64,000 nucleotides of DNA, from the NCBI GenBank assembly GCA_018304615.1, contig JAGVVV010000008.1, positions 25,741 through 89,740 of the forward strand, written 5' to 3'. The notes under the pieces were generated by a model, which made no database searches, was not told the DNA's origin, and saw only the letters and a program-made list of their open reading frames with translations. This DNA is from Candidatus Aenigmatarchaeota archaeon (GTDB lineage: Archaea; Aenigmatarchaeota; Aenigmatarchaeia; CG10238-14; SCSR01). This document shows positions 2,265 to 54,054 of the stretch, piece by piece. The position numbers and the translations under genes are program-made. Each line of letters opens with the position of its first letter. Within the stretch, counting starts at the first letter, position 1.

Positions 2265-2289
2265 AATTTTTACCTTAATATATTTTATT

Positions 2290-3588: not shown

Positions 3589-3621
3589 TAATTTCGTATT
3601 CTATTCATTTATTATTTGAAG

Positions 3622-3696
3622 GGGGAAGTCATCTAGCTTGGTCTAGGATTTATCCTTGGGGTGGATAACACCTGGGTTCAAATCCCAGCTTCCCCA
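3622..3696 (+). tRNA. tRNA-Pro (anticodon GGG)
   Basis: Acceptor GGGGAAG/CTTCCCC, D-stem ATCT/GGAT, anticodon stem TATCC/GGATA with loop TTGGGGT, T-arm CTGGG-TTCAAAT-CCCAG, discriminator A; folded by hand. Confidence 0.75.
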
Positions 3697-3705
3697 TCAT
3701 GCTAA

Positions 3706-5076
3706 CTAAATGTAGCCGAGCTCGCGCAGTCTAGGAAGTACGGAATTATTGAATTTGCTTTGATTGACGAACCCACCATAAATCAAACGCGACTTTGAGG
3801 AGTTGGAAAGAAAGGAATCTATAACAACTAACAGTTTTTCGAAATTTGACGAGTCTGAAATGTTTTTTAACTCGAATGGATCCAAGTTCAAATAATATAA
3901 TTCAGTGGATGAAGTCGTGGAATCCTTTATTATTTTTTTGGAATTCTGAATTACGGAAGTTTTAGAATTCAATTCGGATATTACGAAGTCTCGTTGTTGT
4001 GAGAAAAGAGGCTGACCTTGAAATTGGGAGGGAATTTGTATGTTTAAAAGTTGTAAAATTGTAGGAGCAATGTCCACTCCAGAAGCTATTTGATTAATCA
4101 CTTGACCTCTTGAATTCGGGATTAACACAATCAGAGGGACCCGAATTTCTTCATTGTAAAGATCTAATCCATGGCCAACCCTATAATGCTCACCGAATGC
4201 TTCCCCATGGTCACCAGTAATAATAATGACAGTTTTGTCAAGAAGATGTTTCCGCTGCAAAAATTCATAATCTTGCCTGAGCACAAAGTCGATAAAATTT
4301 ACAGACCCATCGTATATTGCAATTGCATCTTGAAGCTGGGTTTGAGAAAGATTCAGTTCATTCAAGTCGTCGCTGGAAAGATTCCAATTAGTTAAATCGT
4401 TAATAGAGATATTAAGTTTGTTTAATAAAACGGTAGAAATGCCAAGAGATTCAGCATTTGTATTGTTGGGTTTGTACAAGTAGTAATAATCGGCAGGCAA
4501 AAGCCATCTGCTATGGGGTTCGGAATAGTGAAGGAAAAGAAAGAATCTTTTGTCTTTATTTTGATCAATCCATTTAAATGCAAACTGATTGACACTCTCA
4601 GAGTTTCTCTTTGAGATGTTTGATAGGGCATCTTCATTGTAAACGTCAAATCCTCTATTGTATCCATAATAGGAACTCAAATAAGGCAATGTGACCACAG
4701 CAGCTGTTTGATAACCGTTTTGCTTTAAAATTTGAGGAAATGTTACGGCGTTGCTGCTCAATGTAAAGTCGAAATTGTCCTTTCCCACCAAATGCGTGGA
4801 GGGGTAAAGAGAGGTAAAAATGGAGATATGGGAAGGAAGGGTGTATGATGAAGTGGAATATGAATGTTTGAAAATGAAAGACTGATTGGAGATTTCATTT
4901 AAGAAAGGAGTCGTAGCTCTATTATAACCATACAAATTCATATGATTTGACCCTAGAGTGTCAACAGAAATTAAAATTACATTGCAGTCCTTGCAAAATG
5001 GCTTGCTTGAACTACTGAAAAATACGAATATCGAAATGGTCAGTAAAATCAAAAAGACAATGAGAAAAGATTTCAT
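3706..5076 (-). CDS. sulfatase-like hydrolase/transferase paralog, TM-anchored
   Basis: 456 aa; FCKDCNVILISVDTLGSNH; TLPSH in place of CxPxR; GDHGEAFGEH..HGLD. Confidence 0.8.
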   Translation of the reverse strand: MKSFLIVFLILLTISIFVFFSSSSKPFCKDCNVILISVDTLGSNHMNLYGYNRATTPFLNEISNQSFIFKHSYSTSSYTLPSHISIFTSLYPSTHLVGKDNFDFTLSSNAVTFPQILKQNGYQTAAVVTLPYLSSYYGYNRGFDVYNEDALSNISKRNSESVNQFAFKWIDQNKDKRFFLFLHYSEPHSRWLLPADYYYLYKPNNTNAESLGISTVLLNKLNISINDLTNWNLSSDDLNELNLSQTQLQDAIAIYDGSVNFIDFVLRQDYEFLQRKHLLDKTVIIITGDHGEAFGEHYRVGHGLDLYNEEIRVPLIVLIPNSRGQVINQIASGVDIAPTILQLLNIQIPSQFQGQPLFSQQRDFVISELNSKTSVIQNSKKIIKDSTTSSTELYYLNLDPFELKNISDSSNFEKLLVVIDSFLSNSSKSRLIYGGFVNQSKFNNSVLPRLRELGYI

Positions 5077-5107
5077 AATAATATTTAACTAAACATAAAG
5101 ATATCAT

Positions 5108-6421
5108 ATGAAAAAGCTTTTACTGCCGCTGATAATTCTTGTCATCCTTGTCATGTTGTTTTTCAAATTGAGGGAACCAGAAGGGAAAAATGTGATTGTA
5201 ACTGGGACAGGAAATCCGGGAAAAATTCTCGTCTATAAGTTTGAAGGAGTAAATATTGTCCGTAAACAGATTGATACAGGTTACAAACTAGTTCATACGG
5301 TAAAAATAGGCAATGTGAGAAATGACGGGAACCAAGTAATTGTTGCTGGTGTTTCGAATAGTTTTTATGGGCCTCCTTTCGGATGTTCTGTCCTAATTTA
5401 TCACCCAGAGAAAAATTTTGAAAAGGAAGTGGTTGATGACGTGGTGGATTTGAGATGCAAGGATGTTTCAATAGGAGATGTCGACAACGATGGGAAAAAT
5501 GAGATTGTTTTAGGCACTCATGGTGAAGGAATAATAAACGTCTACAGGTGGGAAGGAAACAAATGGGTAAAACAGGAGATAGAAAGAAACTTCATCAAAC
5601 AGATTGACGAAAAAGGAAAAACAAATCACAGAGTTCCAATCGAGAAACTCACTTATGATGCAATCGATCAAACTGCAATTCATATTGTGAAAATTGGGGA
5701 CGCCACGAACAAGGGGAAGAATGGGATTATTGCCTCGGAATCCTCTCCATTGGAGTATACAGACGGACCTCAGATAAGTTATGTGAATATTTACGAATTT
5801 GACGGGAAAAATTGGAACAGGACAACTATTCATACAGGCAAAGGTTTTCAACATAGAAGTATCTTGGTTGGTGATTTTGATTATTCGGGTGGGAATGAGG
5901 TTTTGATTGGAGCGGCACCAAGCAGATTGTTCATGTTGAGATATGATGGAAATTGGTCTTCTACTCTGATCTTCAATCAGACGATTGACAAAAATATGAA
6001 AGGGCTTGATTTCCAGGACATCTATTCGAATGGAAAGAAAGTAATAGTCCTGGCTACAGGAATTCCAAACACTCTTATTTACACTTTGGAATGGGATGGG
6101 AGAGAATTTCAGAAAAAGTTGATTGGAAATGTATCTCAAGTTTCCGAAAATTATAATGTGATTAAAAACCTGAATTACAATGCCTTGGACGTCCAGGCAA
6201 GAGATATCGACAATGACGGGAAGCTTGAAATAATAGTGGCAGGAAAAGCCGATACAAGTGTGACTTTGGACAAATTGACTCCCGAAAACAACATCTTTGG
6301 CTGGGAAGCAACTCCTTATGGTTTTCTAGTCGTCTACAAATTTGACGGGAAGAATTGGAATCCTCTTGTTCTAGACACTTATTCAGTTCTTGGAATGGAT
6401 GTCGGAAACGTCAGATACTAA
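5108..6421 (+). CDS. FG-GAP / beta-propeller repeat protein, N-terminal TM anchor
   Basis: 437 aa; repeated GDVDNDGKNEIV / GDFDYSGGNEVLIG / RDIDNDGKLEIIVAG calcium-binding FG-GAP-like motifs. Confidence 0.65.
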   Translation: MKKLLLPLIILVILVMLFFKLREPEGKNVIVTGTGNPGKILVYKFEGVNIVRKQIDTGYKLVHTVKIGNVRNDGNQVIVAGVSNSFYGPPFGCSVLIYHPEKNFEKEVVDDVVDLRCKDVSIGDVDNDGKNEIVLGTHGEGIINVYRWEGNKWVKQEIERNFIKQIDEKGKTNHRVPIEKLTYDAIDQTAIHIVKIGDATNKGKNGIIASESSPLEYTDGPQISYVNIYEFDGKNWNRTTIHTGKGFQHRSILVGDFDYSGGNEVLIGAAPSRLFMLRYDGNWSSTLIFNQTIDKNMKGLDFQDIYSNGKKVIVLATGIPNTLIYTLEWDGREFQKKLIGNVSQVSENYNVIKNLNYNALDVQARDIDNDGKLEIIVAGKADTSVTLDKLTPENNIFGWEATPYGFLVVYKFDGKNWNPLVLDTYSVLGMDVGNVRY

Positions 6422-6423
6422 CG

Positions 6424-6437
6424 CTTAAATAATATTA
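6424..6437 (+). promoter_or_regulatory. BRE/TATA-like promoter element (cTTAAATAATATta) 26 nt upstream of the tRNA-Pro fragment
   Basis: Near-identical to the element upstream of the intact tRNA-Pro(TGG) (8956-8974). Confidence 0.45.
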
Positions 6438-6456
6438 ATTAGGAAGTTCTTGTCGA

Positions 6457-6519
6457 GGGGGAGTGGTATAGCTCACTTTGGTCTAGAATGGTCTAGCATT
6501 CCAGCCTTGGGAGTTGGAG
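6457..6519 (+). pseudogene. truncated tRNA-Pro(TGG) copy: 5' part (positions 1-48) with a 15-nt insertion in the D-loop; T-arm and 3' acceptor absent
   Basis: Identical to 8994-9041 of the intact tRNA-Pro(TGG) through acceptor, D-stem, and anticodon arm (CCAGC-CTTGGGA-GTTGG) except inserted CACTTTGGTCTAGAA (contains a duplicate of TGGTCTAG); homology ends 6 nt before the stop codon of the converging 6526-7467 gene. Confidence 0.7.
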
Positions 6520-6525
6520 CCTAGT

Positions 6526-7467
6526 TCAACTCAGAAGTTCATAATCCCATTTCCATTCGGTGTTGTTTTTAGCTGTCCAAACTTTTAATTTGACTAAATC
6601 CCCTTTCTTAACTTTGAGGGCTTCCTTAACTGGAAGGATAAACGATTTCCATTCAGGATTATTGTCAAGGGAATTAATTTGAATTGTGTCGGTAAGATAA
6701 ATTTTGAAATATGCGCAAAAGCAGTTCAAATAACCATTTTTGGTTATTTTGAAAGTTTTTTCCACGAAGATGATTTTAGGAAGCGAATAAAAATTCAATG
6801 AATAAACTAATTTATCGTTGCTTAAAAACTCTGTTCTATTAGTTATTTGGATGGGATATGTCTTCTCTGACAGTTTCCTATGAAACGGCGAAAAATCGAT
6901 ACCGTATCTTTTCTGCCAGAAAAAATCGAATTCGTTTGATTCAGCCGGTGAAAACATAATTTCTATTTTTTTAGGTATCATTTTTCCATCATTTTTAAGA
7001 AATTTTCTAGCAAAGCGCATTTTGTCAATAATGCCTTCGTCGACAACACTTCCTCCTATAAGTTCCGATATGATGCAATCCACTTTGGGAATTTTTATAC
7101 GATTCAAATTTGCGCGAATAAAAGTTATATTGTTAAAATTGTTTTTGGTTGCTATCTCTTGAGCCAAATGGATGATTTTTGAATAATCGACAGCATAAAT
7201 TTTTTTAGCGCCCATATTTGCTGCGAAAAATGCAAGAATACCAGTGCCGGTTCCTACATCCAAAACAGTATCATATTTTCTTACAGTTTTCATGATAGCT
7301 TTTTTGAATTTATGAACGCGAGTTTTGTCCGAAAGCATACGTCTGTGCCCTTTCAAATTCTGGAAAGAATATTGTAGAAGGGTTTCCCTGACAAAATGTA
7401 AAGAATATAATTTTAGGAGTATATCCTTCACAATTAATTCAAATTTACCGCTGAAGCCATATGACAC
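6526..7467 (-). CDS. protein arginine N-methyltransferase (PRMT)-like class I SAM-dependent methyltransferase
   Basis: 313 aa; motif I VLDVGTGTGILAFFAA, post-I KIYAVDYS, motif II/double-E loop VDCIISELIGGSVVDEG, motif III FLKNDGKMIP, C-terminal TEWKW resembling the THW loop. Confidence 0.6.
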   Translation of the reverse strand: MSYGFSGKFELIVKDILLKLYSLHFVRETLLQYSFQNLKGHRRMLSDKTRVHKFKKAIMKTVRKYDTVLDVGTGTGILAFFAANMGAKKIYAVDYSKIIHLAQEIATKNNFNNITFIRANLNRIKIPKVDCIISELIGGSVVDEGIIDKMRFARKFLKNDGKMIPKKIEIMFSPAESNEFDFFWQKRYGIDFSPFHRKLSEKTYPIQITNRTEFLSNDKLVYSLNFYSLPKIIFVEKTFKITKNGYLNCFCAYFKIYLTDTIQINSLDNNPEWKSFILPVKEALKVKKGDLVKLKVWTAKNNTEWKWDYELLS

Positions 7468-7493
7468 TAAATAAACATTAAAGTCATTTGTTT

Positions 7494-7512
7494 TAATCTT
7501 TAAATAATATCA
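7494..7512 (+). promoter_or_regulatory. exact 19-nt copy of the tRNA-Pro(TGG) promoter element (taatcTTTAAATAatatca) ~80 nt upstream of a sulfatase-like gene
   Basis: Identical 19-mer at 8956-8974; contains TTTAAATA TATA box. Confidence 0.45.
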
Positions 7513-7590
7513 CAGTCTATATCGCTAATTTTTCTAGTTGGGAATATCCATTACTAATAAATGATAAGATAGGAAAAAGAAGTAATTTAT

Positions 7591-8940
7591 ATGAAATTGA
7601 AAATTATTATCAGAACAATTATTGTGATTTTCAGTTTATTGATATCTATACTTTTTCTAAAGTCAAGTAATGAAACCCATGATGCAGAATGTAAAAATTG
7701 CAGTGTCATTTTGTTCACTGTAGATGTTTTGAGAGTAGAAAATCTAGGTATTTATGAATATCCAAGAAACACAAGTCCGAATATTGATTCGTTTTTTAAA
7801 CAAGGTTTTATTTTTTATAATGCATTCTCTACTTCGTCCCATACTTTGCCAAGCCATGTTTCTATTTTTACCGGCAACTATCCTTCAACACACAAAATAA
7901 TGCCACGAGCTAATATGACACTTCCACATGATCAAAAAACAATCGCCGAAATTTTCAAGGTCTACGGATATCAAACACAAAGTTTCCATGGTGACGACTC
8001 TTTGGATACTAAAGGAGCTGGATTTGAAAGAGGATTTGACAATGTTTATAATCAGAGTGATAATAAACCAAAGATTTTCGATTTTCTTAAATCAGTTAAA
8101 GGTAAATTTTTCTTATCAATATACACAGAAAAATTGCACGATCCTTATTTGTCAAACATTACCTACGAAAATATGTTTGATAAAGATTATAATGGAAGTA
8201 TAATTGGTGATTATGATAAATTTGTACAATTAAAAAAAGAAAATAACATTACAGATGATTTTACACAAGAAAGGCTATTGTTTTGGAGTAAAGTGAACAA
8301 ATCAGATACCAAGGATGTAAAACACTTAATTGCACTTTATGATTCAAATATATATCAAATTGATTTGTTCTTTGGGGAACTCATTAAATATTTAGATGAT
8401 AGAGGGTTTTTGAATGATACAATTATTATACTTACATCTGATCATGGAGAACAGTTTAATGAACATGGAGATTTTCTGCATACGAAACTATATGATGAAA
8501 TTATTCATGTTCCTCTTCTAATTTATGTTCCTAAAACTAAACAGACTGTAATAAAAAATCAAGTCAGCCTTGTAGATTTGAGTCCAACAATTCTATCACT
8601 CGTTGGAATCGTACCTCCTCAAAATATTGATGGTAGGAGTTTAAAGTTCCTAATGGGTAATCCGAATGTAGAGGACAAAAATCAGGTTATATATTCTGAA
8701 TTTGCCTTCCAAAGAGCGATAAGGACTCCAGAATGGAAATTTATCAAAACGGTGAACGGGACAGTGTCATATGAGTTTTTTGATTTAAGAAACGATCCTA
8801 AGGAATTAATTAATTTATATGGGAAAAATGTCAATGAAGAAAGTTTATTTAAACAAGCTTTAGAAGGTTGGGAAGTTAAAATGAACAGTAGTTATGTTAA
8901 TGTTAAATTTCTAAATTCCACGTTTATCGGCTATCCTTGA
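7591..8940 (+). CDS. sulfatase-like hydrolase/transferase paralog, TM-anchored
   Basis: 449 aa; ECKNCSVILFTVDVLR; TLPSH; SDHGEQFNEHGDFLHT. Confidence 0.8.
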   Translation: MKLKIIIRTIIVIFSLLISILFLKSSNETHDAECKNCSVILFTVDVLRVENLGIYEYPRNTSPNIDSFFKQGFIFYNAFSTSSHTLPSHVSIFTGNYPSTHKIMPRANMTLPHDQKTIAEIFKVYGYQTQSFHGDDSLDTKGAGFERGFDNVYNQSDNKPKIFDFLKSVKGKFFLSIYTEKLHDPYLSNITYENMFDKDYNGSIIGDYDKFVQLKKENNITDDFTQERLLFWSKVNKSDTKDVKHLIALYDSNIYQIDLFFGELIKYLDDRGFLNDTIIILTSDHGEQFNEHGDFLHTKLYDEIIHVPLLIYVPKTKQTVIKNQVSLVDLSPTILSLVGIVPPQNIDGRSLKFLMGNPNVEDKNQVIYSEFAFQRAIRTPEWKFIKTVNGTVSYEFFDLRNDPKELINLYGKNVNEESLFKQALEGWEVKMNSSYVNVKFLNSTFIGYP

Positions 8941-8955
8941 ATAATTCAAAGATAA

Positions 8956-8974
8956 TAATCTTTAAATAATATCA
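8956..8974 (+). promoter_or_regulatory. tRNA-Pro(TGG) promoter (BRE/TATA TTTAAATA centred ~-27)
   Basis: Position relative to tRNA start at 8994; archaeal TATA consensus. Confidence 0.5.
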
Positions 8975-8993
8975 TTTAGCAAGTTCATCAGAT

Positions 8994-9068
8994 GGGGGAG
9001 TGGTATAGCTTGGTCTAGCATTCCAGCCTTGGGAGTTGGAGACCCGTGTTCAAATCACGGCTCCCCCA
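8994..9068 (+). tRNA. tRNA-Pro (anticodon TGG)
   Basis: Acceptor GGGGGAG/CTCCCCC, anticodon arm CCAGC-CTTGGGA-GTTGG (anticodon TGG), T-arm CCGTG-TTCAAAT-CACGG, discriminator A. Confidence 0.8.
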
Positions 9069-9128
9069 CATTTAAAAAACTGATTCATGAAGATAGCAAA
9101 GATTAAAATTGAAGAAATTAAATAATAC

Positions 9129-10553
9129 TTGATGCGAAATACTAACTTGATTATCGGATTTATCGCACTTGCAATTTTACTTGTTCTTTTGTACATGAAC
9201 TTGCCGCAGGGATATTCATGCCCTGATTGCAATGTGATAATAATTGCTTTTGACGCAGTGCAGACATCACATGTGAGTGCCTATGGGTATCCTTTACAAA
9301 CAACTCCTAACCTGAATAATTTCGCAAAAGGCGGAACATTATTCACGAATGCAATCAGTCCTGCATCTTGGACTGTTCCGACGTATATGTCTTGGTTCAC
9401 TTCCATGTATCCGTCGGAACATAAAGTGGTGAATAGATACTCTGAATATGAACCTCCGAATGTCACAATTTTAGCGAACCTAAGAAATCTGACACCTTCA
9501 GCAGTCACTCTTGCAGAAATAATGAAACAAAATGGCTTTAGTACTGTAGCCTTCACAGGAGATGCGGGAGCTCGCGGTGCTTCAGGTGATAATATAGGGT
9601 TTGATGTCTATGTAGATACTCCCATTGGGTTTAACGGTTTTGACCTCAGTGTTCCTATGGCACTCAGTTGGATCAGGAACAACACGGACAAAAAATTCTT
9701 CATGTTCCTCCACGGGTATGATTCGCATGGGCAGTACATGCCTAAAAACTTCACGAAAAAATATGATCTCAATTACACTGGAAGATTCAACGGAACAGTT
9801 GTGGAGCAAGCAGCACTCAGGGAAGAAGGATTGGCAAAGGGTTATGTTAACGTCACGGATGATGAAATTAAATTCTGGAGAGCATGGTATGATGAAAAGA
9901 TAAACGATGCAGATGCACGATTTAGAATTTTCATAAACGGACTAAATGAAATGGGATTGATGGACAAGACTATCATCATAGTCGCGTCGGACCATGGAAC
10001 AGAATTTTTTGAACATGGGAGAGTAGACCATGGGCATACATTGTATCAGGAATTAATTCATGTGCCTCTGGTTGTTAGAATTCCGAATTATTCTAACGGC
10101 AAAACTGTCACTAGTCAGGTTTCGACTTTGGACATAATGCCAACTATTTTTCAGATAGCAGGCATTCAGGTAAATGATACTGTTAAAACCCAGATAAAAG
10201 GATTCAGTTTGCTTGATGCCATGAAGGGCAAGGATGTTAGCAGAGACGTATACTCAGAGACAGATTACAGGCTGTTTACCCACAAAAGAGCTATCGTCAC
10301 GAAAGACGGTTGGAAATTTATTCTTACTTTGGCAGAAGCTCCGGATAAGAAAAATGTAAAAGAGTTGTATAATTTGAAAACTGATCCTATGGAAACAACT
10401 AACCTGATTAACTCTGAGCCGCAGACGGCATATGAGCTTGAACAAAAACTATTGAGCCATCTCAAAGAGATGGGAACTAATATTGATGGACCTTGGGTAA
10501 TCGGCTGCTCAGCTGTTTATGTTGACCAATGCAAATATTACGCACATGGATAA
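9129..10553 (+). CDS. sulfatase-like hydrolase/transferase paralog, TM-anchored
   Basis: 474 aa; SCPDCNVIIIAFDAVQTSH; TVPTY; SDHGTEFFEHGRVDHGHT; ATG at 9132 may be the true start. Confidence 0.8.
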   Translation: MMRNTNLIIGFIALAILLVLLYMNLPQGYSCPDCNVIIIAFDAVQTSHVSAYGYPLQTTPNLNNFAKGGTLFTNAISPASWTVPTYMSWFTSMYPSEHKVVNRYSEYEPPNVTILANLRNLTPSAVTLAEIMKQNGFSTVAFTGDAGARGASGDNIGFDVYVDTPIGFNGFDLSVPMALSWIRNNTDKKFFMFLHGYDSHGQYMPKNFTKKYDLNYTGRFNGTVVEQAALREEGLAKGYVNVTDDEIKFWRAWYDEKINDADARFRIFINGLNEMGLMDKTIIIVASDHGTEFFEHGRVDHGHTLYQELIHVPLVVRIPNYSNGKTVTSQVSTLDIMPTIFQIAGIQVNDTVKTQIKGFSLLDAMKGKDVSRDVYSETDYRLFTHKRAIVTKDGWKFILTLAEAPDKKNVKELYNLKTDPMETTNLINSEPQTAYELEQKLLSHLKEMGTNIDGPWVIGCSAVYVDQCKYYAHG

Positions 10554-19490: not shown

Positions 19491-20432
19491 ATGAAAGAAA
19501 TATTAACCAATTTAGAAGATGTATCAGGTAAATTCAAAAGTGTACATATAGATAATGGCTTTGTGTTCATAAAAGTCGGAAAGTATACGGCAAAAATCAA
19601 AATTCCTTTTAGAGTTAGCAAAGAACTTGCATCTTTATATGGACATGTTTTAGGCGATGGCCATATTAAAAAAGATGAACAACACTTTCACTATGTAAAC
19701 AAAAATAAGGATTTAATTGAAGAAGTCAAATCAGAAGTCAAAAATATATTTGCCGTTGAGACCATGGAGTATTTTAGAGAAAACAAACAAATCTATGATT
19801 TGAATTTCCCGGTAGTAATTGCAAAACTGCTTGTTTTATTAGGGTTTCCAAAAGGTAGAAAATCAATTCAAATATTGTCAATTCCAGAATGGTTGAAAAA
19901 TGAATCTGTAGATATCAAAGCGGCTTTTATCAGAGCTTTATTTGATGATGAAGCGTGGGTAGAAATAAAACAGGGTGGATTTTGTATCGGCTTTGGCCAA
20001 AACAAAAATGTCAACTTATTGCAATATCACAAAAATTACATTGAAGAAATTAGGAATATTTTGAGTCAATTAGGTGTCAATTCAAGTAAAATTTTTCAAA
20101 AATCGCAAAAAGGAGATTCTATACAACTTGGTTTTAAAATTTTAGGATTACAAAATCTTACTAATTTTAATTCAAAAATAGGATTTCTCTCTGAAAATAA
20201 ACAAAAAAGATTAGAATTCGTCTTGAACAATTTTAAACAGATACAGTTCGGTAAAAAAGAAGCGAAGTTAAAAATATTGGAAAAATTAAACGTACCTATG
20301 AAAAGTAAAGAATTGGCATTTTTGCTTAATAGGGATCAAAAAACTATTTGGAAACATTTACATCAACTGCATAGAAAAAATTTAGTCACTAAAATCGGTA
20401 CTAAAAATAAAGTATTTTGGAAAAGTGTCTAA
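19491..20432 (+). CDS. free-standing double-motif LAGLIDADG homing-endonuclease-family protein with C-terminal wHTH-like tail
   Basis: 313 aa; motif 1 LASLYGHVLGDGHI, motif 2 FIRALFDDEAWVE; very AT-rich coding region; located between rnp2 and psmA. Confidence 0.7.
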   Translation: MKEILTNLEDVSGKFKSVHIDNGFVFIKVGKYTAKIKIPFRVSKELASLYGHVLGDGHIKKDEQHFHYVNKNKDLIEEVKSEVKNIFAVETMEYFRENKQIYDLNFPVVIAKLLVLLGFPKGRKSIQILSIPEWLKNESVDIKAAFIRALFDDEAWVEIKQGGFCIGFGQNKNVNLLQYHKNYIEEIRNILSQLGVNSSKIFQKSQKGDSIQLGFKILGLQNLTNFNSKIGFLSENKQKRLEFVLNNFKQIQFGKKEAKLKILEKLNVPMKSKELAFLLNRDQKTIWKHLHQLHRKNLVTKIGTKNKVFWKSV

Positions 20433-44727: not shown

Positions 44728-44931
44728 TTAGGACTTTGCAAACCAGTGCGGTTGACCGGCGAGAAGCTTTGATTTAACTTTTTTCTGTTTTTCCAGCTCT
44801 GCAAGTTTCTGCTTAGCTTTGCTTTCCTCCAAATCAAAAACGCGGGAAATTTCCTTGATGACATCTTTTATTTTCAGCCCAAGTTTTTCGAATAATTTTC
44901 TCCATTCCCCATCATTTTTGTTAGATAGCAT
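44728..44931 (-). CDS. small hypothetical protein
   Basis: 67 aa K/E-rich; start abuts tRNA 3' end. Confidence 0.3.
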   Translation of the reverse strand: MLSNKNDGEWRKLFEKLGLKIKDVIKEISRVFDLEESKAKQKLAELEKQKKVKSKLLAGQPHWFAKS

Positions 44932-45035
44932 GCCCCTGCAGGGATTTGAACCCTGGACCTCCTGCTTAGAAGGCAGTTGCTCTATCCAAACTGAGCTTTC
45001 CTCGTATTACTACAAGGGCATTAGCCATCAGGGGC
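44931..45035 (-). tRNA. tRNA-Arg (TCT) with a ~30-nt intron at a non-canonical position between acceptor stem and D-stem
   Basis: Acceptor GCCCCTG/CAGGGGC, D-arm GCTC-AGTTTGGATA-GAGC, anticodon loop CTTCTAA, T-arm CAGGG-TTCAAAT-CCCTG, discriminator A; 32 nt (ATGGCTAATGCCCTTGTAGTAATACGAGGAAA) lie where 2 nt are expected. Confidence 0.6.
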
Positions 45036-47041: not shown

Positions 47042-49741
47042 ATGAAAAAATCCAAATTTGCGAAGATTGAAAAAAAATGGCAGCAGAAGTGGGAAAAAGG
47101 GAAAATATTTGAGTCGAATATTTCTAAGAAGCCAAAATTCTTTCTTACTATTCCTTATCCTTATGTCAACGGAGGTCCGCATGTCGGACACAGTTTTACC
47201 AATTTCAGAGGAGATGTTTATGCTAGATTCAAGAGGATGAACGGATTCAATGTCCTCTATCCTCAGGGATTTCATGCAACAGGACAACCGATTGTCGGAG
47301 CTATTGAAAGGTTGGACAAAAAAGATCCTGTCCAGATTTCAACTTTCAAACTGTTCGGGGCTTCTGATTCTGACATAAAAAATTTCATAAAGCACGGACC
47401 TGAGTTCACTGCAAAGTATTGGATGAAAAAATGGATCCAGACATTGAAGAAAGGTGGATTCTCGATTGATTGGAGAAGATCTTTCATCACTACAACTATG
47501 ACTCCAACTTATTCCAGATTCGTCGAATGGCAGTACAACACACTGAAGAAGAAAGGTTTTGTCGTCCAAGGAACTCATCCGGTCATCTGGTGTCCTCACG
47601 ACCAGTCGCCTACAGGAGATCATGACAGGTTGGAAGGTGAAGGAGAGAGCACGATTGAATATACAATTTTGAAATTCAGGCTGGATTCTGGCGAGGTTCT
47701 TCCATGCGGAACTCTCAGGCCTGAGACTGTATACGGAGCGACAAACCTGTGGGTGAATCCAGAAGTTGAGTATGTGAAAGCGAACGTGGGCAAGGAAACA
47801 TGGATTATCAGCAAACAGGCTGCTGGGAAGTTGGCAGACCAGTTGAAAAAGGTAAAGATAATCGGAAAAGTCAGGGGATATGAGTTGATGGGAAAGCAGG
47901 TGACAAATCCTGTGACTAGGAATAAGATAATGGTTTTGCCTGCAAGTTATGTGGATCCGGAAGCTGCGACAGGAATAGTAGTGTCGGTTCCTGCTCATGC
48001 TCCATACGACTGGGTTGGGTTGAGAGATCTCCAGCAGAATCCTGACCAGATAAAGAAATATGGATTGAACCTGGATTTGGTCTTGAAGATAAAACCTATT
48101 TCCCTGATAAAAGTTCCGGGTTTCGGAGAATTCCCAGCTGTCGAGTTAGTGGAGAAGATGAGGATAACAGACCAGAAGGATAAGATGAGGCTGGAAAAGG
48201 CGACTTCTGAACTTTACAAGGCAGAATTCCACAAGGGTGTTCTGAATAATCTGTATGAAAATTATGCAGGCAAGAGAATTTCTGAAATCAAAGAAGTTCT
48301 GATTGAAGAATTCAAAAAAATGAATGCGATAGATTCCATTTGGGAGTCTACAGGAAGGGTAGTCTGCAGATGCATGACAGTCTGTCATGTGAAGATTCTA
48401 GAAAATCAGTGGTTCCTGAAATATTCTGATCCTGAGTGGAAGAGATTGACGAAAGAATGCATTTCTCAGATGAAGTTCTATCCAGAAGAAGTCAGATCAC
48501 AGTTCTTGAACACAGTTGACTGGTTGAAGGACAAGGCATGCACAAGAAAAGGTGGTCTCGGGACACCGCTTCCTTGGGACAGGCAGTGGATTGTAGAGAC
48601 TCTCAGTGATTCGACTATTTACATGGCTTATTACACTCTTGCAAAATTGATAGATCAAAAGAACATTCCATCAAAGAAATTGACTGACGAAGTTTTCGAT
48701 TACATTTTCTCTGGAAGAGGAAACCCGATAATGATTAGCAAAAATTCCAAGTTGAGTAAGGAAGTTTTAAAAAAATTGAGAAGGGAGTTTGATTATTTCT
48801 ATCCTGTGGATTTGAGGAATTCTGGAAAAGACCTTGTCCAGCACCACCTCACTTTTTTCATCTTCCACCATGTCGCACTGTTCGACAAAAAGTACTGGCC
48901 CAAGTCGATTGGGGTGAATGGGTTTGTGAATGTTTCAGGGACTAAGATGAGCAAGTCAAAGGGGAACATCACTCCTATGGATGAGTTGATTGAAAAAGTC
49001 GGCGCTGATTTGGTAAGAATAAATGTAGTAGCTGATGCCGAAGGAATGAACGATGCCAATTGGAGAGACGAGAGCCTTTCAGGGTATGAATCCAGAATCT
49101 TATTTTTGATGAAACTTGCGAAAGATTTGAAAAAAACAAGAAGGACTTCTATTCAAATGGTTGACAAATTCTTGTTAAGCAGGATAAATGAGATGATAAA
49201 ATCCTCGGCAGGAAATTACGAGTTGATGAAGTTCAGGTCTGCTTCTCAGTTTTCTTTCTTCGACTCTGTGAACGAACTGAAATGGTATCTGGAGAGGGTT
49301 GGTGGAATCAAGAATGCGAACAGGAAAATTTTGACTGAAGCGATATCGATTGTAATTAGATTGGTAGCTCCTTTGCTTCCTCACTTGGCAGAAGAGATGA
49401 ATCAAATTATCGGCGGAAAAAAACTTGTCTCAATCTCAGATTGGCCGAAAATGGATGAGAAGAAGAGTGACAGGAAGATAATGGAGATGGAGAATGTTCT
49501 GAAGAAAACCATAGACGACATAACGAACGTTCTGAAGCTTGCAGGGAAAAAAGAAAAACTGTATCTTTACTTTGCAACAGACAAGGAGCTGGAATACTTC
49601 AACCAATCGGTGGATTTCATAAAGAAAAGATTCAAGTTTAAGAAAGTCTCGACATTCAGAAATGACGACGAGAAAAAATACGACCCGCAGAACAAATCTT
49701 CAAAGGCGAAGTTCGGAAAGCCTGGGATATTCTTAGAGTGA
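47042..49741 (+). CDS. leuS: leucyl-tRNA synthetase
   Basis: HIGH = HVGH, KMSKS present, 899 aa. Confidence 0.9.
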   Translation: MKKSKFAKIEKKWQQKWEKGKIFESNISKKPKFFLTIPYPYVNGGPHVGHSFTNFRGDVYARFKRMNGFNVLYPQGFHATGQPIVGAIERLDKKDPVQISTFKLFGASDSDIKNFIKHGPEFTAKYWMKKWIQTLKKGGFSIDWRRSFITTTMTPTYSRFVEWQYNTLKKKGFVVQGTHPVIWCPHDQSPTGDHDRLEGEGESTIEYTILKFRLDSGEVLPCGTLRPETVYGATNLWVNPEVEYVKANVGKETWIISKQAAGKLADQLKKVKIIGKVRGYELMGKQVTNPVTRNKIMVLPASYVDPEAATGIVVSVPAHAPYDWVGLRDLQQNPDQIKKYGLNLDLVLKIKPISLIKVPGFGEFPAVELVEKMRITDQKDKMRLEKATSELYKAEFHKGVLNNLYENYAGKRISEIKEVLIEEFKKMNAIDSIWESTGRVVCRCMTVCHVKILENQWFLKYSDPEWKRLTKECISQMKFYPEEVRSQFLNTVDWLKDKACTRKGGLGTPLPWDRQWIVETLSDSTIYMAYYTLAKLIDQKNIPSKKLTDEVFDYIFSGRGNPIMISKNSKLSKEVLKKLRREFDYFYPVDLRNSGKDLVQHHLTFFIFHHVALFDKKYWPKSIGVNGFVNVSGTKMSKSKGNITPMDELIEKVGADLVRINVVADAEGMNDANWRDESLSGYESRILFLMKLAKDLKKTRRTSIQMVDKFLLSRINEMIKSSAGNYELMKFRSASQFSFFDSVNELKWYLERVGGIKNANRKILTEAISIVIRLVAPLLPHLAEEMNQIIGGKKLVSISDWPKMDEKKSDRKIMEMENVLKKTIDDITNVLKLAGKKEKLYLYFATDKELEYFNQSVDFIKKRFKFKKVSTFRNDDEKKYDPQNKSSKAKFGKPGIFLE

Positions 49742-49752
49742 TTAGTGATTGG

Positions 49753-49793
49753 TGCTCCCACCGAGCATTTTACTCCAGTGTAAAAAGGAGCAT
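49753..49793 (+). repeat. ~41-nt repeat R1 (TGCTCCCACCGAGCATT..GGAGCAT), core matches tRNA 3' end
   Basis: Imperfect copies at 52062-52105 and 52819-52859; 13-nt core TGCTCCCACCG(A/G)G shared with tRNA 3' fragment at 53228. Confidence 0.6.
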
Positions 49794-49841
49794 AGAAGCT
49801 TATTAATATCTAATTATTTATGATAAATTGGAGTTCAATAT

Positions 49842-50915
49842 ATGTTAAATCAAATTTCAGAACCTCTAACTAGACTAGAAAGCATAATTAATGAATTAGA
49901 GTACATGTGGTATCCAAGGAGTCGTCAAGTCCTAGAATATCGTCCTAGAATAGAACCAAGAGTTACTGAATTGGAAATTGAGGCTACAGATTTATACAGA
50001 AAAATTCTACCTGTTGCTCATGAAATATATACCAGTTTTCCCAAACCTAAGCAAGTAAGGACAAGTAGGCAAATGGAATTGGAAAGTGTGAAAAACATGA
50101 GTGGAGCAAGTTCACATGAAGCTGGTCTGCTTGCAGATTTTGTGCGCACTGGTATACCCAAATATTTTGCCACAGAACCTAAAATGTCATTCGAAGACCT
50201 GGAAGCTGCCACAAGGGGTTTTAGGTCTATCGTTGATGAAAGTGCGAATCCAGATATGACAGACCCATACTGGGAAAGGATAAAGGGTGCTATTCTCATC
50301 GAACCTCACTGGGTTTATGATGTCCCGATGGTACTGGAAAAGGAGAACGGTCTTGGTGAATTTAAAGATTATAGAGTTCCAGAATATCAGTCTCTCGCAT
50401 ATAGCAGATTTTTCCAAAGATACTATAAAAAGCTTGTTCATAGCAATCGAGCTAGAGATAAATTCGTTAGAAACGTCCTCGAAAATCTACCTGAACCAAT
50501 TAGTATAGCTTTATCTGGTGGATTTGTCAAGGAGAGAACTAAGAAATTAGGATATATTCTAAAAAGTTTAGTTGGTGAAAAAGTGATTTTCTTTCCATTA
50601 AAAACTGTTGATCAGTTGGCTTCACTTGAGGAGGAAGAATATAAAGTTCACTGGACGTCGGTACCATTAGAGTTTCCAGTTCACAAATGGACACGAAGTA
50701 TAGGTATAAGTAGCCATCGTGGTGAAGTTGAAACGAAAAAAGTTATTGGAAAAATAAATGCAGAAGAGTTTAATCCATTTTCCCAGGATGACGCAAATCA
50801 TGTAACTCTGTTTTTCAAGGAAAATATCTTCCCTACAACAACGGCGTTTTGGGATAGTCTTATCAATTGGGGACCTGGAATTTTTTATTATTTGATATAT
50901 AAAGAGGCAGAGTAA
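49842..50915 (+). CDS. hypothetical protein
   Basis: 357 aa, no recognisable motif. Confidence 0.5.
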   Translation: MLNQISEPLTRLESIINELEYMWYPRSRQVLEYRPRIEPRVTELEIEATDLYRKILPVAHEIYTSFPKPKQVRTSRQMELESVKNMSGASSHEAGLLADFVRTGIPKYFATEPKMSFEDLEAATRGFRSIVDESANPDMTDPYWERIKGAILIEPHWVYDVPMVLEKENGLGEFKDYRVPEYQSLAYSRFFQRYYKKLVHSNRARDKFVRNVLENLPEPISIALSGGFVKERTKKLGYILKSLVGEKVIFFPLKTVDQLASLEEEEYKVHWTSVPLEFPVHKWTRSIGISSHRGEVETKKVIGKINAEEFNPFSQDDANHVTLFFKENIFPTTTAFWDSLINWGPGIFYYLIYKEAE

Positions 50916-51074
50916 TTATATTTCTCGAATATATCATTATTTCAATCTATCAGTGAGCTTAACAAGAATCGAATCTGCCTCTTGAAACTTTATACCATTT
51001 TATAATCTGAAAGGTAAGATTGATAACTTCAAGTTCATAGCAAAAATTTAAATCTATTATGTTATTACTTTTGT

Positions 51075-52055
51075 ATGGAATTTCATTTAGACCTAACTTA
51101 CCATCCAGAATCAGAAGGATTGTCATATCTTTATACTGATCCATTTTTTATTCCAATTTGGAAAAATGTCCCTTTATCTGATGTTGTGCTATTTGAAGGT
51201 GCTCCCAGAACTGACATAACCTATGAAAATTCGAGAGGTATTCTTGAACAAAATAGAATGTTGATGAGTAAATACAGATCAACATACCTTAAAGATCCAA
51301 TGTTATTTGCTAAATTAGAAAAAAGTCCACCTAAAAATGCGGATTTCTTACAATTAAAAATTTTCACAAAAAGTAGAGCTAAATTATTTTTGACTGAATC
51401 AGAATTATACGATAAAGAAACATATGAAATTATAAGAAGTATACATTCAGAAGTTGAAAGATTAAACTATATTCCATATCTTAAAAGAGGTGAATTAATC
51501 ACTGCTAGAGAAATATTACAAAAATCGCATACTCTTGATATCCAGCTTGCCAAAAAAAGAGATCCAATAATAGCATCATCACTTATTGAATTAATGAAAA
51601 AATTTGAATTGAAAAATGGTTATCTTTTATTTGGTTACTCACATGTAGGGTTATCTAAGCATCTTGAAATACCAGAAGAAAGAGTTAGGAAACTTGAACT
51701 AGGTATTCTTCCCCCTGATTATTTGAGAAGATTCCAGGAAGATGGGTATACTCTTAGCGATGATGATGCTAGACGTTTCTTATTGATAGATTTGCTTGAA
51801 CAGACTGTAGATGGCAATTATTTTGCCCGTTCGAAAAAAATAGCAGATTTAATTTATTTTCTTAATCCAGAAAATTTGGAAGAATTAGAAGATTTATCAC
51901 AACAAGAAATAGAATCAATTCACAAACCATTAATTGAAGAAGGCGAATTAAGTATTTTCTCAAATGCGGAAATTAGAGAAATATTAATTAGAATCCTTTC
52001 TCAACAACTTTCAGAAAAAAATCAATCCGCTCTGATTCCTAAAGAATGGAAATAA
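51075..52055 (+). CDS. hypothetical protein
   Basis: 326 aa. Confidence 0.5.
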   Translation: MEFHLDLTYHPESEGLSYLYTDPFFIPIWKNVPLSDVVLFEGAPRTDITYENSRGILEQNRMLMSKYRSTYLKDPMLFAKLEKSPPKNADFLQLKIFTKSRAKLFLTESELYDKETYEIIRSIHSEVERLNYIPYLKRGELITAREILQKSHTLDIQLAKKRDPIIASSLIELMKKFELKNGYLLFGYSHVGLSKHLEIPEERVRKLELGILPPDYLRRFQEDGYTLSDDDARRFLLIDLLEQTVDGNYFARSKKIADLIYFLNPENLEELEDLSQQEIESIHKPLIEEGELSIFSNAEIREILIRILSQQLSEKNQSALIPKEWK

Positions 52056-52061
52056 AAGGCT

Positions 52062-52105
52062 TGCTCCCACCGAGCATTATACTAAAGTTCAAGTTTGTGA
52101 CATAG
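52062..52105 (+). repeat. repeat R2
   Basis: TGCTCCCACCGAGCATTATACTAAAGTTCAAG.. Confidence 0.55.
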
Positions 52106-52220
52106 ATTACATGCAATTCTTCAAGGAGAGCCTGAGGTCAGGAGAGATCTCCTAGATAAGGAAGAGTAGTTGAGGTGAAGTGAATATCGTTATTTAAATC
52201 TATAGGTTCAATCATTTTTC

Positions 52221-52769
52221 ATGATTATACCTGAAAATAAAGTCATACAAAATCCGAATGACCAATATCCAACAACAATTGAATTACATCATAGGACTTA
52301 TGGTTTAGTAGAAAAGGAAGATGGTCATTATAGTGCAAAAAGAATGATAGAATTTTGGAGAAGTGAGTGGGATGGTCGATCAAGAGGTTATGAAGATAGT
52401 GGTTTGGCTTTGCACATAACGGCAATTCCGCTTGGATGGCAGAAATACGGACAAATTCCAGAAGGTTGGCGTAATTCTCGTGTAAGAGGCAGATTGGAAA
52501 ATAGAATAGGAGGGGATCTTGAAGTGCCACTCAAGGTTGTTCCAATAGAAGTAAATCCTACCTATACACCCAATGAATTTAGAAGACAGATAGATACGCT
52601 TGTAGAAAAATCTAGTTCAATTCTTTCTGATACACAAATGTTTTCGTTAGAATTAAATCAGTTGCTAATTAGTGGCTGGGCTATTGTAAATGAAGAACTT
52701 TATCATCAACTTTTCGAATATGGTATTCAAAAGTCAAATGAAAAGTTAGCAACTTTGCCCCAAGTTTGA
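52221..52769 (+). CDS. hypothetical protein
   Basis: 182 aa. Confidence 0.45.
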   Translation: MIIPENKVIQNPNDQYPTTIELHHRTYGLVEKEDGHYSAKRMIEFWRSEWDGRSRGYEDSGLALHITAIPLGWQKYGQIPEGWRNSRVRGRLENRIGGDLEVPLKVVPIEVNPTYTPNEFRRQIDTLVEKSSSILSDTQMFSLELNQLLISGWAIVNEELYHQLFEYGIQKSNEKLATLPQV

Positions 52770-52818
52770 ACAAATTGAATATGTGTGTTAAAGACCCAAA
52801 AGGTTGACAAAAAACTTT

Positions 52819-52859
52819 TGCTCCCAACGAGCATCATACTTCAGTTCAAAAAGGAGCAT
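52819..52859 (+). repeat. repeat R3
   Basis: TGCTCCCAACGAGCATCATACTTCAGTTCAAAAAGGAGCAT. Confidence 0.55.
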
Positions 52860-52933
52860 TAACTTTTGGGGGATTTTATTTACAGGCATAAAAAAGTTTT
52901 ACAACCATAAATAGCTAAACAATTGTTATTTAA

Positions 52934-53194
52934 ATGGCAAAAAATATGGGTAGTACATATATAAAAAAGGTAAAAGGGCATCACTACTTTTATTTGCAAC
53001 ATTATAATGAGGGTAAGAAGGAACAAAGATGCCTCGGACCTGTAAATGATCCATTACTATGGCCAGAAGTCCGAAGAAAATACATTGAAAATCAAGATAG
53101 ACGAAGAAAAGCATTCGATAAGAAGATTGCAACAAGTCTGGGTCTCACATTAAAAGATTTTTACAAACTTGTGGAAAGTTATCAAAGAACTTGA
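52934..53194 (+). CDS. small basic hypothetical protein
   Basis: 86 aa. Confidence 0.4.
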   Translation: MAKNMGSTYIKKVKGHHYFYLQHYNEGKKEQRCLGPVNDPLLWPEVRRKYIENQDRRRKAFDKKIATSLGLTLKDFYKLVESYQRT

Positions 53195-53227
53195 TCTTAA
53201 TTCAATTTATAACTGAAAGAAAATTTC

Positions 53228-53252
53228 TGCTCCCACCGGGATTTGAATCCGA
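53228..53252 (-). pseudogene. tRNA 3' fragment (T-arm + 3' acceptor strand + discriminator only)
   Basis: TCGGA-TTCAAAT-CCCGG-TGGGAGC-A on minus strand; no complementary 5' acceptor strand; the adjacent 53257-54054 ORF occupies where the 5' part would lie. Confidence 0.5.
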
Positions 53253-53256
53253 CTGC

Positions 53257-54054
53257 TTAACCGCCGAGTACAATCTCGAAAGATTCTACAATCGCTGCCA
53301 ACGACAGGATAAGGGCTGAAATCACCATGAGCTGGAAAGTGTCCTTGAGGATGAAAGAAAATCTGGGGGATTTCTTTCTGGTGAGTGCTGCGGAGATCAG
53401 ACCTCCTGCTACTCCGGCAATGAAATAAGCGAGTATCTCAAGGCTGCCATGTGGGAAGAAGGCCAAGACCGCTAATGGAAGTCCTTTGACTCCCCCGAGA
53501 CTCTTTGCAGCCAGTCCTATTGCCGATGCAAGAATGGAAGCGTTCCACGCAAGAATAAAAATCGCTCCTGCTCCGAACAGGAAGGAGAATAAGAATGCGA
53601 GTATGAGGACTCCAAGGTTGTTTACAAGAATCTTTGTCAAAGTGTCTGGAAAAGCTATGTTTCCTCTTACCAGGCTGATCTCCTTGATCTGGTCGCTGAA
53701 TATCTTGTCTGTGAGATCACCAGGCAGGAGTATGAAAACCACAGAAAGGGTTATTATCATGCCTCCGAAGAAGGCCGAATAGATTCTCAGAATGTCCTTG
53801 TGCCTTGCAAGAATATTGGTTCCGGCAGCAAGCGCTGCTTCCTCCTCCTCCTTTTTCTCTTCGTATCTCACTGCCCTCAACATCAAGGGAGTGACTGCTA
53901 TTGTAACAAGCAGGCTCATCATCAAGCCAGAGGAAGTCTGGAAGACAACGAACGAGATGAAGAGGCAGATGACAGAAATTATCCCTCCTAGGATGAACAT
54001 CCACTGAGGTTTCTTTAAGGCTGTTTTCAATGAAATTAGCCTTTCGAGGACCAA
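53257..54054 (-). CDS. DUF95/SpoIIM-like multi-pass membrane protein
   Basis: 265 aa. Confidence 0.5.
   Translation of the reverse strand: MVLERLISLKTALKKPQWMFILGGIISVICLFISFVVFQTSSGLMMSLLVTIAVTPLMLRAVRYEEKKEEEEAALAAGTNILARHKDILRIYSAFFGGMIITLSVVFILLPGDLTDKIFSDQIKEISLVRGNIAFPDTLTKILVNNLGVLILAFLFSFLFGAGAIFILAWNASILASAIGLAAKSLGGVKGLPLAVLAFFPHGSLEILAYFIAGVAGGLISAALTRKKSPRFSFILKDTFQLMVISALILSLAAIVESFEIVLGG

Follow-up and report, generated by a model that had tools for sequence, protein, structure and literature searches.

How did 3,515 nucleotides (nt) of AT-rich DNA, with four hypothetical genes and a set of short repeats, come to lie between two housekeeping genes that abut in related archaea? 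The question is raised by an island at positions 49742-53256 of the stretch analysed here, a 64,000-nt window from contig JAGVVV010000008.1 of a Candidatus Aenigmatarchaeota archaeon. The island runs from the stop codon of leuS (47042-49741, plus strand; Pfam tRNA-synt_1, Anticodon_1 and the LeuRS editing domain) to the stop codon of a spoIIM-family membrane protein gene (53257-54054, minus strand; Pfam SpoIIM, E 2.5e-18). At its right edge, 4 nt from the spoIIM stop codon and reading frame, lies a fragment of a tRNA-Glu gene that shares a short core with each of the repeats. We consider it probable that three small elements, with related attachment (att) sites and unrelated cargo, integrated serially and site-specifically at a copy of the tRNA-Glu 3' end, and that the recombinase has been lost or acts in trans.

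Comparison of the window's proteins with 53 related loci by tblastn shows that leuS and spoIIM are here separated by an insertion of 3,515 nt. Aenigmatarchaeota keep a gene order of leuS, convergent spoIIM, a 154-aa gene and then, usually further on, alaS, and in about 12 members other than this one the leuS and spoIIM stop codons abut or lie 0-22 nt apart, with no tRNA between the two genes. The nearest species-level relatives, which are Aenigmatarchaeota metagenome-assembled genomes (MAGs), have LeuS proteins 54-62% identical to that of the window; a closer MAG, JAZDPU01, has 84% LeuS identity. The island itself was not found in any of the 53 related loci, and none of them encodes a relative of its four open reading frames (ORFs). 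An earlier interpretation made from the letters of the DNA alone (hereafter the sequence-only reading) had proposed a comparison with genomes that lack these segments, and had named conserved core genes in relatives as the finding that would speak against an integrated island; the ORFs are not such genes. In a few relatives (loci L003, L006, L025 and L054) unrelated inserts of 0.26-1.4 kb fill the leuS-spoIIM gap, and these inserts contain no tRNA-like fragments or boundary repeats. The convergent gap between the two genes seems tolerant of insertions.

The composition of the island is foreign. Its GC content is 33.7%, against 39.5% for the 64-kb window, and local values are 27-37% within it and about 40-48% in its flanks. 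The GC content at third codon positions (GC3) is 17-28% in the island ORFs and 48% in leuS, which bears out the impression that the segments are richer in AT than the synthetase gene upstream. The four ORFs have the sizes first read from the sequence (357, 326, 182 and 86 aa), all point in one orientation, and each has its own TATA-like promoter. The repeats divide them into segments of 2.3, 0.76 and 0.41 kb, each comprising one or two genes. Two of the island genes carry the NCBI tags J4452_01880 and J4452_01885, assigned to a 'Candidatus Aenigmarchaeota archaeon' MAG.

The repeats are built on a core, TGCTCCCACCG, which occurs four times in the 64 kb, always within the 3.5-kb island, where 0.22 copies would be expected. 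Read on the minus strand, the corresponding 11-mer CGGTGGGAGCA is found at these four positions only (again 0.22 expected). A longer 17-mer, TGCTCCCACCGAGCATT, is matched perfectly at 49753 and 52062; the copy at 52819 departs from it by two mismatches and that at 53228 by three, and none of 100 shuffles gave as many as five matches. The first three copies extend into a family of 41-nt sequences with identities of 100, 68 and 85%, and the fourth extends into a 25-nt piece comprising a T-arm and an acceptor strand. The same 17-mer and 11-mer searches place the three repeats where the sequence-only reading had put them (49753, 52062 and 52819). That reading had also described a 13-nt core held in common with the tRNA piece; the sharing stands, and the length becomes 11 nt exact, or 12 of 13.

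Mobile DNA that inserts at the ends of tRNA genes usually leaves direct copies of such an end behind. The 25-nt piece with the fourth copy (53228-53252, minus strand, with core copy 4 at 53228-53238) consists of both T-stem strands, the T-loop, the 3' strand of the acceptor stem and a discriminator A. Its sequence, TCGGATTCAAATCCCGGTGGGAGCA, is identical to the archaeal tRNA-Glu consensus 3' end at 23 of 25 positions, and the two differences both fall in the 5' strand of the T-stem. When metagenomes were scanned with TGCTCCCACCGGGATTTGAAYCC, a near-identical form of the fragment, 112 loci were recovered; every one of the 112 matches is a tRNA-Glu 3' end, and nearly all lie in genes that read as full-length archaeal tRNA-Glu. 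These genes have UUC or CUC anticodons, some contain introns, and their 3' ends read ...CCGGGTTCAAATCCCGGTGGGAGCA. The fragment and the repeat core thus derive from the 3' end of tRNA-Glu.

The remnant recognised by the sequence-only reading is therefore real, and it has no 5' half. Neither ARAGORN nor Rfam reports a tRNA at 53228-53330, a result that did not change when the threshold was relaxed to E<=10 or when a 37-nt piece was taken by itself, and a search of the window for a tRNA-Glu 5' motif or split partner gave nothing above chance. The proposed search for an intact counterpart elsewhere in the genome was rewarded on another contig of the same MAG, where locus L121 carries an apparently complete tRNA-Glu(UUC) at 8871-9036 (plus strand). 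This gene is apparently interrupted in at least two places and was missed by Rfam at gathering score. We assigned L121 to the MAG of the window on the basis of a tetranucleotide correlation of 0.965, which is inside the window's own range, and of three tested proteins: one is identical to MBS3055087.1 (J4452_01185), and the other two belong to clusters of at least 90% identity with J4452_01170 and J4452_01240. The last 25 nt of the L121 gene, TCGGGTTCAAATCCCGGTGGGAGCA, match the window fragment at 24 of 25 positions. The sole difference is G53, which is A in the fragment, so that the conserved 53:61 pair is broken; the fragment is therefore a decayed copy and not a working piece. Immediately after the L121 tRNA-Glu (9152-10171) lies an orphan, AT-rich gene with a GC3 of 0.26 and no Pfam match, and the MAG's real tRNA-Glu may also carry an integrated element.

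Split tRNAs and tRNAs rich in introns are well known from DPANN archaea, and one rival explanation is that the minus strand encodes a functional tRNA piece, either the 3' part of a split tRNA or a set of mini-helices that mimic the tRNA-Glu acceptor stem. Nanoarchaeum equitans, likewise a DPANN archaeon, reportedly has split tRNAs, including tRNA-Glu, as described by Randau and colleagues in 2005, and the stand-alone tRNA-Glu 3' piece of the island, apart from its gene, resembles that arrangement. On the minus strand, moreover, the units of repeats 1 and 3 start with ATGCTCCT (GCTCCT, as at the beginning of the 5' acceptor strand of tRNA-Glu), and TGGGAGCA stands at their end. In these two repeats, the unit of 41 nt could close an acceptor-like stem; repeat 2 has no matching start. 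In repeat 1 a CCA directly follows the core on the tRNA-sense (minus) strand, and the minus-strand fold pairs the two acceptor-like ends, with the best z of the set (-2.1), which is only weakly better than shuffles. However, shuffled sequences do as well as the remaining minus-strand folds, the 5' acceptor-like end is missing from repeat 2, and Rfam recognises none of these sequences. Unlike the N. equitans halves, the fragment comprises a T-arm and an acceptor strand only; it begins at position 49, which is no known split point, it has no complementary leader, its G53:C61 pair is broken, and a full tRNA-Glu(UUC) gene is apparently present elsewhere in the MAG. We consider a working tRNA piece to be extremely improbable.

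We scored the sequence on either side of the core over 30 nt to the right and 20 nt to the left against random segments of the island. Repeat 1, the left junction (49753-49793), has its core at 49753-49763 and a right, or P, arm (AGCATnnTACTnnAGT) at 49764-49793. Repeat 2 (52042-52102) comprises a left, or P', arm at 52042-52061, the core at 52062-52072 and a P arm at 52073-52102. Repeat 3 (52799-52859) has the same internal organisation, with a core at 52819-52829 that contains one mismatch (CCAAC) and a P arm identical to that of repeat 1 at 25 of 30 positions. The right junction has only a P' arm (53208-53227), which is A-rich on the plus strand and hence reads as an oligo-T run on the tRNA-sense strand. 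Compared pairwise, the right arms of repeats 1-3 agree at 17-25 of 30 positions (background mean 8.4; P(>=17)=0.001), whereas the right arm of repeat 4 matches the others at a background level of 8-12 of 30. Left arms of repeats 2-4 agree pairwise at 11 of 20 positions in each comparison, that of the right junction included (background mean 5.6; P(>=11)=0.012 each), whereas the left flank of repeat 1 is simply the end of leuS and matches the other left flanks at a background level of 4-8 of 20.

The four copies are thus ordered B-core-P, P'-core-P, P'-core-P and P'-core-B', where B and B' denote host arms and P and P' denote element arms, and the junctions are chimeric between the two. Only the leftmost copy is without a P' arm, only the rightmost is without a P arm, and all three segments retain both. 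This is the layout that would be produced by circular P'-core-P elements integrating successively at one attB site (B-core-B'). Because their P and P' arms are related, the elements can be placed in one att family. Tandem duplication, which might also generate a repeated array, is excluded because the cargo of the three segments is unrelated.

The P' arms have a further property. In each of them an oligo-T run begins 4 nt past the core on the tRNA-sense strand, and a consensus scan scores repeats 2 and 3 as a hairpin followed by oligo-T on that strand only. Among the real tRNA-Glu genes sampled, about 45% have TTTT within 15 nt downstream. The arms thus have the look of an adaptation for re-creating both the 3' end and the terminator when a genuine tRNA-Glu gene is entered, which suggests that the normal target of the elements is the tRNA-Glu gene itself.

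A hairpin followed by T-rich sequence had led to an alternative proposal in the sequence-only reading, namely that the repeat is a terminator or other 3'-untranslated-region element of the plus-strand genes. Each copy does lie 6-49 nt past a plus-strand stop codon, a TGCTC-CCACC-GAGCA hairpin can form, and repeat 1 scores as terminator-like on the plus strand. Nevertheless, no copy follows o357 (the 357-aa ORF) or any of the roughly 60 other genes of the window, and none was found in 0.9 Mb of other loci (mostly from related archaea, with about 40 kb from this population), except for one chance-like match. The motif is therefore not one that recurs after many unrelated genes, the pattern that had been named as decisive against integration. 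Plus-strand folds of the four copies (z of -1.27, +0.08, -1.34 and -0.54) are no better than those of shuffled sequences, T-runs are inconsistently placed on this strand, and in repeats 2 and 3 the terminator-like signal is on the strand opposite the ORFs. Such an element would also leave the tRNA-Glu identity and the chimeric flanks unaccounted for, and we reject this explanation as very improbable.

Under serial integration, the islet would have been built by site-specific recombination at a sequence copied from the tRNA-Glu 3' end. Each segment would have joined via an attP site with the final 11 nt of tRNA-Glu at its centre (the minus-strand 11-mer given above), and each integration would have duplicated the core. 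The predicted product reads leuS - core/P - cargo1 - P'/core/P - cargo2 - P'/core/P - cargo3 - P'/core - T-arm fragment - spoIIM, and the empty site would read ...GATTGGTGCTCCCACCGGGATTTGAATCC... The oligo-T runs of the P' arms would reflect the need of an element that lands in a working tRNA-Glu gene to restore the 3' end and the terminator of that gene. The recombinase, most likely a tyrosine integrase, would have been lost or would act in trans. We infer this mechanism, the number and order of the events and the fate of the integrase from the arrangement of the junctions.

Use of the tRNA-Glu 3' end as an integration site has parallels in other archaea. We counted copies of the 11-mer, with at most one mismatch, around the 112 tRNA-Glu loci by class, for which about 2.2 would be expected in each; ten are direct and downstream, none direct and upstream, and one inverted and downstream. 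In L103 (87-1504) an integrase-less 1.4-kb segment with two ORFs lies between a tRNA-Glu gene and an 11-nt copy, and in L147 (2075-2393) a 0.3-kb segment, also without an integrase and with one 75-aa ORF, is bounded in the same manner. Both copies have the left boundary of the window core. At L178 (about 7470-7700) a unit of about 69 nt is present three times in tandem, with AGGTGGGAGCA at the end of every unit. The tRNA-Glu 3' end thus serves as a site in archaea beyond this one. One of the L103 ORFs looks SET-domain-like by eye.

Published systems point in the same direction. Archaeal integrases usually target tRNA 3' ends, where the T-stem forms a conserved palindrome, and they leave the tRNA undisrupted; TKV2, a Thermococcus element of the pT26-2 family, resides in a tRNA-Glu gene (PMC6972569). 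The island resembles the archaeal tyrosine-integrase elements (SSV-type or type I, pNOB8-type or type II, and the pT26-2 family) in its direct repeats identical to a tRNA 3' terminus, its foreign and AT-rich cargo, and a P' arm that restores a tRNA-like 3' end with oligo-T. It differs from them in lacking an intact boundary tRNA and an integrase, whether whole or as Int(N) and Int(C) parts, in an identity block of 11 nt rather than tens of nt, and in units of 0.4-2.3 kb rather than 5-40 kb. Among the marks by which tRNA-targeting elements are recognised, then, the island displays tRNA-identical direct repeats, absence from relatives combined with atypical composition, and chimeric junctions, and it is without an intact tRNA at the boundary and an integrase gene.

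Islands seeded at tRNA genes offer a second comparison. The tycheposon islands of Prochlorococcus grow by repeated integration at a single tRNA site, which moves the older elements inward and leaves degenerate elements and partial tRNAs scattered through the island (10.1101/2020.12.28.424599). Clusters of atypical orphan genes derived from integrative elements have likewise been described, and such elements were put forward as the main source of orphan genes (Cortez et al. 2009, PMC2718499). The present islet shares with these islands and clusters the marks of successive integrations at one att site, namely partial tRNAs, degenerate elements and orphan cargo. A full-length tRNA anchors those islands, and they still contain integrase genes or fragments, whereas the islet has neither and lies between two abutting housekeeping genes.

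Several results weigh against serial integration at this site, and the first concerns the recombinase. Searches of the four island ORFs against Pfam, PHROG, NCBIfam and PADLOC revealed no recombinase, integrase or transposase domain, and no Pfam integrase, recombinase or transposase was found in the called genes at positions 1-62,055; the remaining 2 kb of the window is part of a 953-aa aminoacyl-tRNA synthetase gene. These outcomes agree with the expectation of the sequence-only reading that the integrase would be lost or unrecognisable. Indeed, none of the four ORFs has a significant match of any kind in the four collections, and there is no paralogy among them. The PADLOC lines that did appear (o357, E 0.025; o326, E 0.031) are at noise level, and defence-gene content was rejected.

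The cargo ORFs are all on the plus strand. The o357 gene (49842-50915) belongs to a small uncharacterised family; a word-indexed search returned only the protein itself, and a full HMMER search found 19 remote homologues with 22-36% identity (alignment A1). The family is conserved and unnamed, about 280-320 aa in length, with the motifs SWPKPKQxR, ENRNPDxTDPYW and KVIFFP. Its AlphaFold2 (AF2) model is confident (predicted local distance difference test (pLDDT) score 81, predicted template modelling (pTM) score 0.79) and has no significant fold match in PDB or BFVD, nor has the protein a sequence match in PDB; the recombinase folds that the sequence-only reading had suggested looking for were thus not seen in this model, which again counts against integration. 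Relatives of o357 are encoded either on contigs of small size or among hypothetical genes of a chromosome, and where context exists they have no tRNAs, repeats or integrases around them, and a profile-derived scan of viral contigs found none. The o326 gene (51075-52055, 326 aa) is an orphan with only a self-match among 5.8 billion proteins, and its single-sequence structure model is unusable (pLDDT 36). The o182 gene (52221-52769, 182 aa) has no detectable relatives and no family or phage match. The o86 gene (52934-53194, 86 aa) is an orphan in the same 5.8 billion proteins, although residues 4-39 give weak matches to PHROG families of unknown function (E 0.005).

A second point against integration is that no virus or plasmid was found to carry the repeat or the genes, a check that the sequence-only reading had recommended. 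Searches by blastn with the island and by tblastn with three of the ORFs against phage and plasmid collections gave nothing. An IMG/VR scan for TGCTCCCAMCGAGCAT returned 20 single matches, which show no similarity past the 16-mer and are attributable to chance, and a viral origin was rejected.

Third, the identity block is just 11 nt in three of the four copies, against a typical att site of around 40 nt (10.1101/2020.12.28.424599). Fourth, neither ARAGORN nor Rfam detects an intact tRNA adjoining the array, and no relative has one at this site. The sequence-only reading had envisaged serial integration into a tRNA gene. Its att-like tRNA repeats, now assigned to tRNA-Glu, and its foreign cargo hold, and the junctions are chimeric as serial integration predicts; a tRNA gene at the site finds no support: the stop codons of leuS and spoIIM are almost contiguous in the dozen relatives described above, and the spoIIM frame is next to the fragment. 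The SpoIIM C-terminus of the window, which is 2 aa longer, matches that of relatives to within two residues, and no tRNA 5' part can therefore hide there. Since the site bears no trace of a tRNA gene and the real tRNA-Glu is on another contig, either the target was an ectopic tRNA-Glu fragment or the array arrived as a block. Serial integration does not account for the arrival of a founding tRNA-Glu fragment at a place where two stop codons otherwise abut; one way out is that a founding insertion, itself not site-specific, supplied a pseudo-attB that was reused later.

Fifth, contigs of the same population show a single state. The LeuS of the window is identical to that encoded on ENA contig ERZ27254763:k141_2401292, and contigs from several samples contain the island in the same order at 99.7-100% identity. 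Strain-level single-nucleotide polymorphisms (SNPs) are present in the flanks and absent from the island. Exact-protein look-ups for LeuS, SpoIIM, o326, o182 and o86 likewise gave one arrangement only, and the recovered contigs contain no empty site, excised circle or alternative cassette order. The metagenome scan for the fragment, for its part, returned real tRNA-Glu genes only, and it also missed L084, a JGI contig known to carry the island that ought to have matched, so that its failure to return an empty site carries no weight. In the 3' part of leuS, one strain (L082) has 13 substitutions within the 85 nt at 49033-49117 while the island next to it has none, a pattern that resembles a short tract of recombination.

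Some of these facts would be accommodated by a transfer in one step, in which the array formed elsewhere, at a genuine tRNA-Glu gene belonging either to this genome or to a donor, and was inserted here as a 3.5-kb piece by illegitimate recombination, the locus itself never having undergone site-specific recombination. In relatives there is virtually no spacer to act as attB, and the island is invariant and free of SNPs in all contigs. In addition, the fragment is nearly identical (24/25) to the MAG's own tRNA-Glu, and it abuts the stop codon of a spoIIM gene extended by 2 aa, such that the right boundary may lie inside the last codons. On the other hand, ends of the form B-core-P and P'-core-B' would be a coincidence in a randomly cut block, and no copy of a P or P' arm occurs in the 1.4 kb available downstream of the real tRNA-Glu. 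We therefore think such a transfer unlikely. Recovery of an empty site of the form leuS-TGA...GGTGCTCCCACCGGGATTTGAATCC...spoIIM would mean that the tRNA fragment predates the cargo.

The small size of the segments invites yet another explanation, that they are active cassettes, i.e. mobile, integrase-less circles of one or two genes with an attP of roughly 60 nt around the last 11 nt of tRNA-Glu, which a recombinase encoded elsewhere stacks at any copy of a tRNA-Glu 3' end, an ectopic fragment included, in the manner of an integron. Both arms are intact on all three segments, which would be rare under random decay of larger elements, and the sizes of 0.4-2.3 kb, the shared orientation and the single promoter per ORF fit this proposal, as do the integrase-less mini-segments beside tRNA-Glu in unrelated archaea. 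Assembly data add a lead. In assembly ERZ28563803 the island is spread over three contigs (to 52072, 52018-52814 and from 52760), neighbours of which overlap by exactly 55 nt. Contig L081 stops exactly at 52072, so that the final base of the first shared 55-mer is also the final base of the repeat 2 core. One assembly has the o182 segment as a separate contig of 797 bp, and in an independent Logan assembly a contig starts with the 30-mer ending at 52814. The loci concerned are L081, L217, L209 and L211, with break points at 52072/52073 and 52814/52815. Breaks at 52072 and 52814 imply alternative continuations at these positions; none was recovered, and we treat the breaks as a lead only.

Integron arrays and clusters of attC sites lacking integron-integrases (CALINs) are superficially similar in having single-gene units in one orientation, joined head to tail, with a recombination site at the end of each and no recombinase inside. 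They differ from the island, where every ORF has its own TATA-like promoter and the site is a piece of a tRNA. The attC architecture (an imperfect palindrome of the form RYYYAAC ... GTTRRRY) is not present in the repeat sequences, Rfam returned nothing for 49600-53500 at E<=10, and there is no sign of IntI with attI and Pc, as no integrase-family Pfam match was found among the called genes across the window. Active cassettes are further disfavoured in that no integrase has been identified, no circular junction or other order was observed in the recovered contigs, and the arms of L103 and L147 are unrelated to those of the island. Although we consider it improbable that the segments are such cassettes, if this were true they would constitute an integron-like gene-capture system in DPANN and other archaea, with a site that mimics a tRNA end together with its oligo-T terminator.

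Three other features of the window were observed. A tRNA-Arg(TCT) gene at 44931-45035 (minus strand) has its 5' acceptor strand, GCCCCTG, about 30 nt from the D-arm, and the gap is apparently a non-canonical intron near position 8/9; ARAGORN missed the gene, Rfam covers model positions 9-63 only, and the syntenic tRNA-Arg(TCT) is ordinary in relatives. A 313-aa ORF with a weak LAGLIDADG_3 match (19491-20432, plus strand) is a solitary gene, with RNase P protein genes on one side and a gene for a proteasome subunit on the other. Lastly, the region 780-10553 contains five sulfatase-family genes around two tRNA-Pro genes, which is many for a small DPANN genome.

We thus return to serial integration as the preferred account of the leuS-spoIIM islet, which would be a remnant or integrase-less array of integrative elements at an ectopic tRNA-Glu fragment. 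As such it is a known kind of feature, and its unusual points are the ectopic site, the 11-nt core and the very small units without an integrase. Little has been charted of the mobile elements of DPANN archaea, whose small genomes contain numerous orphan genes without a known source. The islet also shows that an integration site can be marked, and perhaps provided, by a tRNA fragment detached from the gene itself; annotation pipelines that check only beside full tRNA genes would miss sites of this type. The islet would provide an example, at the level of coordinates, of orphan genes that enter an Aenigmatarchaeota chromosome via an att site copied from tRNA-Glu and persist there without an integrase.

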